DNA of 15,672 nt from a virus (Duplodnaviria > Heunggongvirae > Uroviricota > Caudoviricetes): IMG/VR virus record IMGVR_UViG_2582580934_000010. One strand, given 5' to 3'. Shown here in pieces: positions 4,902-12,960 of this stretch. The position numbers and the translations under genes are program-made. Each line of letters starts with the position of its first letter. Within the stretch, counting starts at the first letter, position 1. The notes under the pieces are model-generated. The model searched no databases, had not been told where the DNA came from, and saw nothing but the letters and a program-made list of their open reading frames with translations.

Positions 4902-5090
4902 TGTTCATTCCACGGACAAAAACAGAGAAAGGAAACGACAGTGGCCAAAAAGCCCGTTTTCAGCACCTGTCGTTTCCTTTCTTTTCAGAGGGTATTTTAA
5001 ATAAAAACATTAAGTTATGACGAAGAAGAACGGAAACGCCTTAAACCGGAAAATTTTCATAAATAGCGAAAACCCGCGAGGTCGCCGCCC
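4902..5090 (-). promoter_or_regulatory. cos: cos site: cosB (Nu1/IHF-binding region) at 4902-5078 and cosN 12-nt cohesive-end sequence at 5079-5090
   Basis: Plus strand 5079-5090 is AGGTCGCCGCCC, the reverse complement of the lambda cohesive end GGGCGGCGACCT. The reverse complement of 4902-5090 reads like the lambda left end (GGGCGGCGACCTCGCGGGTTTTCGCTATTTATGAAAATTTTCCGG...), ending at the Nu1 ATG. Confidence 0.85.
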
Positions 5091-10212: not shown

Positions 10213-10596
10213 TTAATTAGAGTTATTAACAACGATATCCATCTCTAACCGGATATCTAATGCCATTAACATCCCTTCAATTATGCCCTCAGCCTTCTGT
10301 AACCTTTTCCCGATATAACCATCAGAGCAGCAATGCTTACCTGCCAGTGACATGAATGTCATACCGACTACATAATAATCTACTAATAAATCGTGCAAAT
10401 CGCTGTTGTTCTTTTTCAGACGGGCCATGCACCCGCAAATGATCATCGCGTCATCGTCACAACATTGCGGGCGAGATTTTACTTTTGAAGGAATTAATCC
10501 CTTAAAACCGGCGGCAATGGACGACCAGGTCACATCTTCATGATTATTAGCCGCCCACGCTCCCCAACGTTCAAGAACCATCTGAATATCACGCAT
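10213..10596 (-). CDS. quuD: Late-gene antiterminator Q (phage 21/82-type, QuuD-like), 127 aa
   Basis: The track ORF starts at a TTG at 10611; the ATG at 10594-10596 gives 127 aa [22 protein letters not shown]... with Cys-rich segments ([19 protein letters not shown]). Positioned upstream of the lysis cassette on the same strand. Confidence 0.8.
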
Positions 10597-10721
10597 TAAC
10601 TTTCTCCACAAAATCAGGCCAGCACACCAATCGCCAGTGCGCGATCGATAAAACGAAATATCAGCTCCAGCTGGGAGCCATACTTCTCTTCAAATGCCAC
10701 GGTATCCACAACAGTAGTAAT

Positions 10722-11213
10722 CTACAGATTGCCGTTAAGTTTTCTGGACAACTCCTCAATGGATGGAGGCGATACGTAATCCGGATTTTTATTCATCAGA
10801 AACTTATTTTCACAGTGGAGGCACCTGCTTTTATGAAAAAGCTCATCTTCGCTAACCGGGAATGGTTGAAGTATCGATACTATCTTTTGTCCAAAACATT
10901 TTGGGCAAAGATGCATGGTTATGCTGCCACCGTTCACGATTACCTCCTTCGAGTATACAAAAGTACCCGACTCAAGTTGGTTAAGGATATAGCCTTCCGT
11001 CTGAGCCTCAAAGTTTTCGAATTCTGCAATTTTAGCTTTGAGAGAAGCATTTATTTCTTGATAAGAGCCCACCAGTTCAACGAGAGACACGCATTCGCGC
11101 TGAATAGACGCAAGCTTTGAGTTCAGCTCACCAATAGCCGCATTTACTTCAGCTTGAGTTTTTGCCTCGTTCATTAGTTTTGCAATCTGGGCTGTTTCAC
11201 GAATAGCCGTCAT
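10722..11213 (-). CDS. Hypothetical protein: N-terminal coiled-coil (~70 aa) plus C-terminal CxxC-x21-CxxC zinc-ribbon-like domain; no family recognised
   Basis: The track ORF (259 aa) begins in low-complexity sequence that reads through the upstream repeats. The plausible start is the ATG at 11211-11213 (163 aa, weak Shine-Dalgarno) or the GTG at 11235-11237 (171 aa, AAGAG 8 nt upstream). Heptad-like N-terminus (AQIAKLMNEAKTQAEVNAAIGELNSKLASIQRE...), then HLCPKCFGQKIV...SRCLHCENKF. Confidence 0.5.
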   Translation of the reverse strand: MTAIRETAQIAKLMNEAKTQAEVNAAIGELNSKLASIQRECVSLVELVGSYQEINASLKAKIAEFENFEAQTEGYILNQLESGTFVYSKEVIVNGGSITMHLCPKCFGQKIVSILQPFPVSEDELFHKSRCLHCENKFLMNKNPDYVSPPSIEELSRKLNGNL

Positions 11214-11251
11214 TGCTGCCGTTAATTCAGCGATCACATTGAATACTCTTA

Positions 11252-11297
11252 TTGTTGTTGGGGATATCCAGATTAACCGAATCCTTGTTGTTGGGGA
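11252..11297. repeat. Two direct copies of TTGTTGTTGGGGA (11252-11264 and 11285-11297), 33 bp apart, immediately upstream of the 10722..11213 gene
   Basis: Exact 13-bp match read from the sequence; on the minus strand the motif is TCCCCAACAACAA. Confidence 0.7.
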
Positions 11298-11379
11298 ATA
11301 ACCAGGTCCACCTCGCCTGATGTGGCTAAAAGCAGGCACATAACAGCTAAGTATTTTCAACCAGAGAGAATCCTTAGCG

Positions 11380-11570
11380 TTGTGGTGAATGCGGCTCAGC
11401 GCACGCGGGTTAAGGTTGAGGCTGACAGTCGACCTTCTGTGGACACCCACCCGCCTGGTGTGCAACCTTCGCCAGGCACCGGGAGGCACCCGGCACCACA
11501 ACTTTATGCTGTGTGTAGTCCTGGCGGTACCAGTTTGTACCCTTGCTTCCGGCTGGTACCGTCCTTTTTT
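11380..11570 (+). ncRNA. Candidate structured RNA or leader element: GC-rich non-coding segment with several potential stems, ending in a terminator (stem CGGTACCAG/CTGGTACCG at 11525-11561 plus CTTTTTT at 11564-11570)
   Basis: No plausible protein in any frame (translations are Pro/Arg-rich). Local GC is clearly higher than in the flanks. Helices include GCGGG/CCCGC, CCTGG/CCAGG and CCGGG/CCCGG, with a terminal hairpin plus U-tract on the plus strand. Confidence 0.25.
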
Positions 11571-11571
11571 G

Positions 11572-11658
11572 CAAAACAGAGAAGAGCATCACCGGACGAC
11601 GGGCTCATAACCCAATCCATCCGGGCGGCTGCCACCGCAGGTGTTCTTCTCTGTTTTG
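11572..11658. repeat. 14-bp perfect inverted repeat CAAAACAGAGAAGA (11572-11585) / TCTTCTCTGTTTTG (11645-11658) bracketing a 59-bp GC-rich spacer, about 50 bp upstream of the yfdP-like start
   Basis: Read directly from the sequence. Confidence 0.7.
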
Positions 11659-11707
11659 TGGAGAAACCAACCGACCTTGCAGGGTCGATATGATGAGGAG
11701 CAGCAAA

Positions 11708-12070
11708 ATGGCTAGCGAACGCAGTACTGATGTGCAGGCATTTATCGGGGAGCTGGACGGCGGCGTATTTGAAACCAAAATCGGCGCAGTTCTCAGTGAG
11801 GTCGCTTCCGGTGTGATGAACACGAAAACCAAAGGGAAGGTCTCACTCAATCTGGAAATCGAACCGTTTGATGAGAACCGTGTGAAAATCAAACACAAAC
11901 TCTCATATGTTCGCCCAACTAACCGCGGGAAAATTTCCGAAGAAGACACCACCGAAACGCCGATGTATGTCAATCGCGGTGGTCGCCTGACTATTCTGCA
12001 GGAAGACCAGGGACAATTACTGACTCTTGCCGGTGAACCTGACGGAAAACTCCGCGCAGCAGGTCGTTAA
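11708..12070 (+). CDS. yfdP: Hypothetical protein, YfdP-like (120 aa); first gene of the int-proximal plus-strand operon
   Basis: The track ORF starts at 11543; I chose the ATG at 11708, preceded by GAGGAG with 7-nt spacing, which gives 120 aa MASERSTDVQAFIGELDGG.... Length and neighbours match the K-12 CPS-53 yfdP-Q-R-S-T series as recalled. Confidence 0.55.
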   Translation: MASERSTDVQAFIGELDGGVFETKIGAVLSEVASGVMNTKTKGKVSLNLEIEPFDENRVKIKHKLSYVRPTNRGKISEEDTTETPMYVNRGGRLTILQEDQGQLLTLAGEPDGKLRAAGR

Positions 12071-12135
12071 TATCGTTCGTAATAAACTGATTATTTATCT
12101 CATCACTGAATATCTTTATATAGTGAGGACTTATT

Positions 12136-12960
12136 ATGTCTCAGAACTTAGACGCAACCGCAATTAATCAAATCCATGCCCTTATTTCTGCTCAGGGTGT
12201 TAATGAAATTATCAGTAAGATTGGTGCCGATGCTGTGGCATTGCCTGAGAATTTCCGCATTCATGATCTGGAAAAATTTAATTTAAATCGCTTCCGTTTC
12301 CGTGGTGCGCTTTCCACTGCCAGCATCGATGACTTTACCCGTTATTCTAAAGATCTTGCAGATGAAGGCACCCGCTGCTTTATCGATGCTGATAATATGC
12401 GTGCCGTCAGTGTGCTTAACCTGGGTACTATTGATGAGCCAGGTCACGCAGATAACACTGCCACTCTCAAACTGAAAAAGACAGCACCGTTCTCTGCTCT
12501 GTTGTCTGTTAACGGCGAGCGTAACTCCCAGAAGTCACTGGCAGAATGGATCGAAGACTGGGCCGACTACCTTGTGGGCTTTGATGCTAATGGTGACGCC
12601 ATTCAAGCAACAAAAGCGGCTGCGGCAGTCCGTAAAATCACGATTGAAGCAAACCAGACCGCTGATTTTGAAGATAATGACTTCAGCGGCAAACGCTCCC
12701 TGATGGAGTCTGTCGAAGCGAAGACCAAAGACATTATGCCAGTGGCATTTGAATTTAAATGCGTTCCGTTTGAAGGTCTGAAAGAACGTCCGTTTAAATT
12801 ACGCCTCAGCATTATCACTGGCGATCGTCCTGTACTGGTTCTGCGCATTATTCAGCTGGAAGCGGTGCAGGAAGAAATGGCTAACGAATTTCGTGATCTG
12901 CTTGTTGAGAAATTCAAAGACAGCAAAGTAGAAACCTTTATTGGTACTTTCACCGCCTGA
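12136..12960 (+). CDS. yfdQ: Hypothetical protein, YfdQ-like (DUF2303), 274 aa
   Basis: ATG start with a GAGGA Shine-Dalgarno; length and context match YfdQ as recalled. Confidence 0.6.

Follow-up and report, generated by a model that had tools for sequence, protein, structure and literature searches.

The window analysed here, a stretch of 15,672 nucleotides, is a defective DLP12-type prophage at argU. Its left part carries late genes (terminase, nohD, ybcV, bor, rzpD, rrrD, essD, a porin and quuD, the last at 10213–10596), and a DUF968 pseudogene stub (10614–10706) joins quuD and the late genes to a hypothetical gene on the minus strand (10722–11237) that lies beside a small RNA (sRNA). A 470-nt non-coding stretch follows, which begins with the sRNA; after it the genes yfdP, yfdQ and yfdR open a block that continues through intD and fills the rest of the window. 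In IHE3034 (locus L001) these two blocks are separated by an immunity and replication region, which is deleted in the window, and PL is lost. We place yfdP, the first gene of the downstream operon, at 11708–12070 on the plus strand, as annotated in identical DNA of other genomes. Two in-frame ATGs (11690 and 11693) precede this start and the resulting MMRSSKM... extension is kept in many relatives; the true yfdP start is uncertain. A sigma-70 promoter scan of 10500–12300 found none, and no own promoter is evident. A search for operators near the sRNA gave no result, the window being a deletion derivative without cI or cro. Elsewhere in the window, a full-length IS009 RNA (RF02111, 221.6 bits) lies at 1312–1510 on the minus strand, overlapping the tail-fibre-assembly gene region.

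The sRNA belongs to the STnc100 family (Rfam RF02076) and occupies 11349–11572 on the plus strand, where it abuts the inverted repeat that is the subject of this study but is not part of it. The match covers the full length of the model with 40.2 bits (gathering score 47) and E = 2.5e-7, ends at 11572, which is the first base of the repeat, and includes a terminator hairpin (11525–11561) and U-tract (11564–11570). Primers published for sRNA-17 (PMC7719688) match the 5′ stem at 11378, the terminator and the region upstream of yfdP, and delimit a 193-nt RNA at 11378–11570. Judged by this primer match, the window sRNA and sRNA-17 of E. coli K1 share one locus type. Deletion of sRNA-17 in E. coli K1 raised yfdP reads from 0.5 to 47, about 100-fold, and the same study states that sRNA-17 is without an Rfam homologue and calls it novel (PMC7719688). 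The rise in yfdP may reflect altered read-through in cis and not regulation in trans. STnc100 copies are expressed in EHEC lysogens, and one of them has been verified by Northern blotting (PMC5331693).

The repeat follows the terminator directly, as a preliminary description of this DNA had proposed (hairpin 11525–11533 with 11553–11561, T-run 11564–11570). We found that CAAAACAGAGAAGA at 11572–11585 is the exact reverse complement of TCTTCTCTGTTTTG at 11645–11658, that the spacer between these 14-bp arms is 59 nt long with a counted G+C content of 66%, and that the repeat lies upstream of the yfdP operon, which starts at 11708; the perfect repeat, its GC-rich core and its position had all been described correctly. 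A dinucleotide shuffle of the window contains on average 0.035 perfect inverted repeats that reach 14 bp and have a spacer of up to 100 nt, against 3 such loci in the window itself, this one included; the 14-bp repeat is not chance. The two further perfect repeats of at least 14 bp, also with short spacers, lie at 4926–4984, just past nohD, and at 21–56, at the left edge of the window.

With G·U pairs allowed, the arms extend into a helix of 19 bp, hereafter P1, in which 11572–11590 pairs with 11640–11658 on the plus strand. The first 14 nt of its 19-nt 5′ strand are the left repeat arm and the last 14 nt of its 3′ strand are the right one; both strands were located by inverted-repeat search, folding and covariation. 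Minimum free energy (MFE) folds add seven pairs between the terminator U-tract (UUUUUUG, 11565–11571) and UGGAGAA at 11659–11665, giving about 26 bp. The 3′ strand of this extension is part of UGGAGAAACCA (11659–11669, plus strand), which the alignment of copies marks as the conserved right edge of the module. P1 of the window is followed by UGGAGAAAC, and a CCA is absent. Folded as RNA, the 87-nt element reaches −43.8 kcal/mol against a shuffle mean of −21.4 (z = −8.2), and none of 200 shuffles folded as well. RNase III substrates are near-perfect duplexes of at least 20 bp, about two turns, a length that P1 attains in the window when its 19 bp are extended to 26 bp, and with 21–27 bp in nearly all other copies of this long-stem form. 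No U-run follows P1 on the plus strand and the terminator scan does not list it, so P1 lacks the features of an intrinsic terminator.

The inverted repeat closes a conserved, previously unannotated RNA structure with three arms, which lies in the early-left operon leader of lambdoid prophages. Every variant, when folded, independently reached the same three-way junction of P1, P2 and P3. P2 is a conserved arm of 33 nt (11592–11624, plus strand), supported by sequence conservation and by covariation in its basal stem. It consists of that basal stem (11592–11596 with 11620–11624), two middle pairs (11598–11599 with 11616–11617), an apical GGG/CCC stem (11601–11603 with 11611–11613) and a 7-nt loop, CUCAUAA (11604–11610). 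An exact-pattern scan found the 23-mer at 11599–11621 to be identical in at least 120 viral contig stretches; within the window, a search on both strands with up to 3 mismatches for a cis target of this 23-mer returned the element itself only. The basal stem covaries, with one pair being A-U in 30 copies, G-C in 20 and G-U in 6, and with C-G/U-A and G-C/A-U exchanges elsewhere. The apical stem of three G-C pairs is nearly invariant and is assigned from sequence conservation alone. P3 (11625–11638, plus strand) is a variable hairpin, GCGG-CUGCCA-CCGC in the window, and is formed as a hairpin in nearly all variants. Its length among variants is 15, 16, 17, 19, 20, 21, 23, 36, 38 or 40 nt and its sequences are unrelated; compensatory changes occur at three of its four basal pairs. 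The preliminary description had envisaged an RNA stem enclosing a structured loop in the leader of the plus-strand operon. This reading stands, and what was called a loop is in fact a conserved three-way junction, one arm of which is tRNA-like.

Between the module and the yfdP ribosome-binding site lies a small hairpin, P4 (CGACC-UUGCAG-GGUCG, 11672–11687, plus strand), identified by its recurrence in relatives. Most of the different first genes are preceded at this site by a hairpin whose loop is of the U(U/G)GCAG type and whose stem sequence differs. It is uncertain whether P4 is part of the module. Read on the minus strand, P4 is terminator-like in the scan. The P3 hairpin of some phages has the same U(U/G)GCAG-type loop as P4.

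We built a covariance model (R1) from a MAFFT alignment of 15 diverse long-stem copies and used it to align 59 plus-strand copies, 56 of them distinct. In the seed alignment 95.5% of cells are paired and 10 pairs are changed on both sides. The 56 distinct copies come from enterobacterial prophages and are related by descent, and their alignment is derived from the model and fitted to it; here, too, 95.5% of cells are paired, and 20 of 40 pairs show compensatory changes (115 cells). None of 500 shuffles matched the observed pairing and compensatory values, and sliding the 3′ partner by 1–3 columns left 43–55% of cells paired and only 2–7 pairs with changes on both sides. The fold is kept by compensatory change, and the independent MAFFT seed alignment agrees with this. 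P1, the base of P2 and P3 each covary, and P1 including the seven-pair extension (26 pairs) has changes on both sides at 13 pairs. In the columns of the U-tract extension, U faces A or G in most of the 56 copies, and support there is weaker than for P1 proper because the variation is mainly one-sided. G·U cells number 272 and A·C cells 44 (116 and 11 without the U-tract extension). Since G·U outnumber A·C six to one, we conclude that the folding strand is the yfdP-sense RNA and not duplex DNA.

The same data bear on two readings that would place the element outside the realm of structured RNA. The repeat had also been proposed to mark the termini of a miniature inverted-repeat element (MITE) or paired operator half-sites, to which recombinase half-sites may be added. 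The 14-bp arms are indeed perfect in the window, and mosaic joints occur near both ends. However, the arms differ between phages and yet remain complementary, covarying instead of keeping their sequence; the prevalence of G·U over A·C would be meaningless for duplex DNA, in which G·U amounts to an A·C mismatch; and neither arm is a palindrome in itself. The copy number across 2,809 E. coli genomes (median 1, at most 5 places in a genome), with the same few prophage contexts recurring in the 155 copies examined, also speaks against a mobile element, and direct reading of the flanks (U-tract on the left, UGGAGAAAC on the right) showed no target-site duplication. Of the three earlier readings, only the RNA structure survives, and we give a DNA-level element very little credence. 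Even less can be given to the view that the element is part of a YmfH-like protein-coding gene, the open reading frame (ORF) at 11322–11693 that PGAP calls a frameshifted hypothetical protein. An ORF does span the element in e14 (ymfH, 103 aa) and in several phage annotations, but the overlapping ORF matches no Pfam or NCBIfam family, is frameshifted in the window and covers both a Northern-verified sRNA family and a terminator. Insertions and deletions in P3 break the reading frame, whereas the substitutions are compensatory for pairing.

We detected the element by BLAST in 2,809 of 5,426 complete E. coli genomes (median 1, maximum 5 places per genome) and in 71 phage records, including SfV, SfII, SfIV, mEp460, cdtI, Stx2a and Stx2c phages, ST64B and Klebsiella phages. 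The K-12 copy, 83% identical, lies in e14 under the ORF ymfH. A related 19-mer has 24 true copies in data with one genome per species, all in Enterobacterales (Escherichia, Shigella, Citrobacter, Enterobacter, Kosakonia, Mixta, Leclercia, Phytobacter, Pseudescherichia, Raoultella, Pseudocitrobacter, Erwinia, Klebsiella, Buttiauxella and Pantoea); one extra copy is in a record labelled Chryseobacterium. Nine non-enterobacterial matches to the 19-mer lie inside unstructured sequence and were dismissed as chance. The 23-nt core is invariant across at least 15 Enterobacterales genera. None of the phage records annotates the element as RNA, the entries being either nothing or a hypothetical protein (YmfH), no family in Rfam 15 matches it and the core sequence was not found printed in the literature searched. 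Rfam searches at the gathering threshold and at E ≤ 10 returned the sub-threshold STnc100 neighbour and chance matches to MIR1094, the hairpin ribozyme and DicF (over the terminator). No description of this RNA family was found in Rfam 15, in the annotations that accompany three genome collections or in the searched literature.

Nearly all long-stem copies (119 of 120) abut a hairpin and U-tract, the exception (L136) being without the U-tract. The RNA upstream of these 120 copies is full-length and STnc100-like in 71 and the terminator part only in 43, and is different or unrelated in the rest (6 partial matches among these); adjacency to a terminator holds even where terminator and upstream RNA are unrelated in sequence. 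The 155 copies examined always lie in a few prophage contexts, and mostly the left flank is a terminator U-tract and the right flank GGAGAAAC. The first gene after the long-stem module is interchangeable: at least six different genes occur there, and mosaic joints fall just after GGAGAAAC. In the intact relatives ST64B, phiNP and LLS, the order is cI, a terminator, OL operators matching OR, PL, a leader, the sRNA with its terminator, the junction and a yfdP-type gene. The junction thus lies in the PL leader behind a terminator and would be transcribed only on read-through. In the Pantoea phage PA-1 (L129 2560–2600), a junction follows a terminator downstream of a holin gene and is itself followed by CCGUUGUGGUGAAUCG, which resembles the 5′ stem of an STnc100-type sRNA, an order reversed relative to E. 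coli.

The PL leaders contain two further conserved sequences. A ~62-nt element begins about 10 nt after PL in 54 of 164 loci and has the form CGAACAGGCAGGACGCCCACGAAGUAGCCGCC-(covarying stem-loop)-GAUGAUUCG; 5 of its 15 pairs are compensatory, and the PLs that it follows are of different immunity types. It always lies 320–1,310 nt upstream of the junction on the same strand (for example, L125 1940–2005 and L127 1790–1855). In position and size it is like HK022 putL, but it has no sequence match in HK022. In 29 PL leaders, upstream of sRNA and junction, we also found a boxA-like sequence of rrn type, GCUCUUUAA(A/C)AAU, that follows a hairpin (for example, L001 7386–7398). Both are candidates for making PL transcripts resistant to the terminator, and the window has neither. 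The e14 genes ymfH, xisE and intE are treated as one operon in a prophage-induction iModulon (PMC12132413), which is consistent with transcription through the element on the yfdP-sense strand.

The tip of P2 resembles part of a tRNA. The 14 nt of CGGGCUCAUAACCC (11600–11613) are identical to the anticodon stem-loop of the E. coli initiator tRNA (tRNA-fMet), for which our reference was a 100% match to annotated tRNA-Met genes in 5,426 genomes. Among canonical tRNAs, tRNA-fMet (and tRNA-Ile2, with its CAU anticodon) is the nearest comparison, through the 7-nt CUCAUAA loop closed by three G-C pairs and an overall size of about 70 nt. The likeness has clear bounds. The GGG/CCC stem has three continuous pairs, which never vary, against the 5-bp anticodon stem of a tRNA. 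The anticodon-type arm is 33 nt long with internal loops, a D arm and a T-loop motif are absent, and the window form has a helix of 19–26 bp and no CCA. Run on the window and 45 loci, ARAGORN called neither a tRNA nor a tmRNA at the element, and at E ≤ 10 the Rfam model for tRNA matched neither this form nor the short-stem form described below. In the e14 copy of K-12 the P2 loop is altered to UUAAUAA, so the CAU triplet is not universal. We conclude that the junction element is not a tRNA and that the resemblance is partial.

A second genomic context emerged from the weakest BLAST matches, in which the core directly follows tRNA genes downstream of Q in lambdoid phages of Klebsiella and E. 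coli. We examined 17 such short-stem copies, which follow tRNA-Asn, tRNA-Arg or tRNA-Phe genes after Q and whose P1 is GGCCUG/CAGGCC only. All 17 have a CCA and a five-base spacer (GATAA in 15) in front of them, the short-stem form beginning 5–6 nt past the CCA of the tRNA gene before it, and 16 of 17 are directly followed by NCCA, though the sequence beyond differs; with its terminal helix of 6–7 bp and NCCA, the end of this form is like that of a tRNA. It is the last member of a tRNA gene array that itself follows a terminator, and the next gene is 200–300 nt away with a terminator between. The long and short forms differ by compensatory changes in P1, in the base of P2 (CCGGA/UCCGG versus CCUGA/UCAGG) and in P3, whereas the 23-nt core is the same, and one viral contig (L099) carries both forms. 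When the short-stem form was used as a BLAST query, no intermediate carrying a tRNA-Met or tRNA-Ile annotation came up.

What is new here is the architecture and the dual placement; the kind is known, that of viral tRNA-like structured RNAs and of processing hairpins in phage leaders. The T4 species 1 and 2 RNAs are small stable RNAs of unknown function encoded in phage tRNA clusters. By description, they are similar to the present family in being non-tRNA RNAs in a phage tRNA array with a tRNA-like end, but the present family has a second form, outside arrays, within an mRNA leader. The lambda N leader and the T7 early R sites contain RNase III processing hairpins in early phage transcripts, and the long-stem form shares with them a long near-perfect duplex in an early-operon leader just upstream of the first gene, whereas those hairpins are without a conserved three-way-junction core or a tRNA-like arm. 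YrlA, a bacterial Y-RNA-like molecule, also bears a tRNA-like module on a long terminal stem; unlike in YrlA, the tRNA-like part here is the anticodon arm and not the acceptor and T arms, no rsr or rtcB neighbourhood exists and the Rfam YrlA model had no match at E ≤ 10. The STnc100/sRNA-17/PasD family is the immediate 5′ neighbour, and the U-tract of its terminator supplies the outer P1 pairs, but it is a separate RNA whose model ends at 11572, and the junction is also found behind unrelated terminators and behind tRNA genes.

Taken together, the element is most likely a tRNA-like RNA module that arises only when transcription continues past the adjacent terminator of STnc100/sRNA-17 type. 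The structural and homology part of this explanation, a structured yfdP-sense RNA module of about 100 nt, is highly probable; the processing and trans-acting steps set out below are much less secure, and we consider the package of module, read-through, processing and action of the CAU arm to be only somewhat more probable than its negation. Only polymerases that pass the upstream terminator would make the RNA, which in intact relatives would be those on antiterminated PL transcripts, and in lysogens leaky read-through from the sRNA promoter would supply it. The window copy is probably expressed only by read-through, if at all, because the prophage is defective and its immunity region and PL are deleted. 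The P1 duplex of 19–26 bp would then be cut by a double-strand-specific nuclease, to judge from helix length alone probably RNase III. Such a cut would leave the STnc100-type sRNA and the yfdP mRNA as separate molecules and free the tRNA-like core as a small RNA, and the short-stem form would yield the same product through tRNA-processing enzymes. The text of a paper on E. coli RNase III targets (PMC6212723) names neither e14 nor ymfH. The CAU-anticodon-like arm would be the working surface, probably binding a protein or ribosomal site that reads the anticodon arms of tRNA-Met or tRNA-Ile2.

Three other explanations were weighed. The module could be purely a cis element of the leader, serving as an RNase III or mRNA-stability site or as a translational operator for the first early-left gene; a repressor would dock on the tRNA-like core, much as at the thrS operator, and no free RNA would be produced. 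Its location 50 nt upstream of the yfdP start, the long P1 duplex, the conserved P4 between module and ribosome-binding site and the strong response of yfdP and yfdR levels to manipulation of the adjacent sRNA locus all fit this proposal. We nevertheless think it unlikely, given that tRNA arrays contain the same junction, there ending in NCCA and lying 200–300 nt and a terminator away from the next gene, and that the gene downstream of the long form is interchangeable, with a mosaic joint right after GGAGAAAC. Decay offers another account, in which a functionless tRNA pseudogene (tRNA-Met or tRNA-Ile2, CAU) is carried along by phage mosaicism and the long stem is accidental. The identity of 14 nt with a tRNA anticodon arm, the short form adjoining real tRNA genes and ending in NCCA, and the diverged e14 loop are what one would then expect, but neutral decay would not hold pairing at 95%, nor would it leave a 23-nt core invariant in at least 15 Enterobacterales genera while the surrounding stems change by compensatory substitution and the junction is kept in two unrelated contexts. 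This makes decay very unlikely.

Antitermination is the remaining proposal and, by a little, the least probable of these three. HK022 put is a cis-encoded RNA of ~70 nt with two adjacent stem-loops, lying directly after the promoter and before the terminators (PMC9378689). By analogy, P2 and P3 would bind polymerase and confer resistance to the downstream terminators of the early-left or late operon. Each of the two contexts heads a long operon, the P2 and P3 hairpins lie next to each other like the pair in put (PMC9378689), the head of an early operon in an N-less lambdoid phage is a shared setting, and the ST64B repressor is annotated as HK022-cI-like. However, the element sits after, not before, a strong terminator, and put has neither a closing helix nor a CCA end. 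R1 had no match in the HK022 genome at E ≤ 10, a comparison made in that direction only, and an inverted-repeat search did not find putL in the HK022 record. In intact relatives, moreover, the conserved 62-nt element right after PL is the better-placed candidate.

A bolder extension of the preferred read-through module, which we regard as speculative and rather unlikely, is that the family is a new class of tRNA mimic in lambdoid phages of Enterobacterales, without a D arm but with a CAU anticodon arm of initiator/Ile2 type, that occupies two genomic slots, depends on antitermination and acts in trans on the host machinery by which such an arm is read. The RNA would be excised from the early-left leader via the long stem or matured like a tRNA from the tRNA array of the late operon. 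It could be a decoy that draws off an anticodon nuclease, for example enteric VapC, whose substrate is initiator tRNA, or it could bind MetRS, TilS or the P site of the 30S subunit. Over-expressed e14 ymfH has been reported to trigger the RcaT toxin of retron-Sen2 (bioRxiv 10.1101/2020.06.22.160242). We found that the e14 ymfH ORF (L124 3320–3631) consists of an STnc100-like sRNA and the junction, and the triggering might be an effect of RNA and not of protein.

Recognition of this element corrects annotation in about half of E. coli genomes, e14 of K-12 included. For the widely studied STnc100/sRNA-17/PasD sRNAs, the element also defines where the 3′ boundary lies and what becomes of read-through. 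It brings out an early-left layout in N-less phages that consists of PL, a conserved leader RNA, an sRNA with its terminator, the junction and the genes. Finally, with tRNA-targeting defence and the counter-measures of phages now being actively studied, it provides a concrete candidate phage tRNA mimic that can be tested; if the tRNA-mimic reading is true, triggering of retron-Sen2 by e14 ymfH would be an RNA effect.
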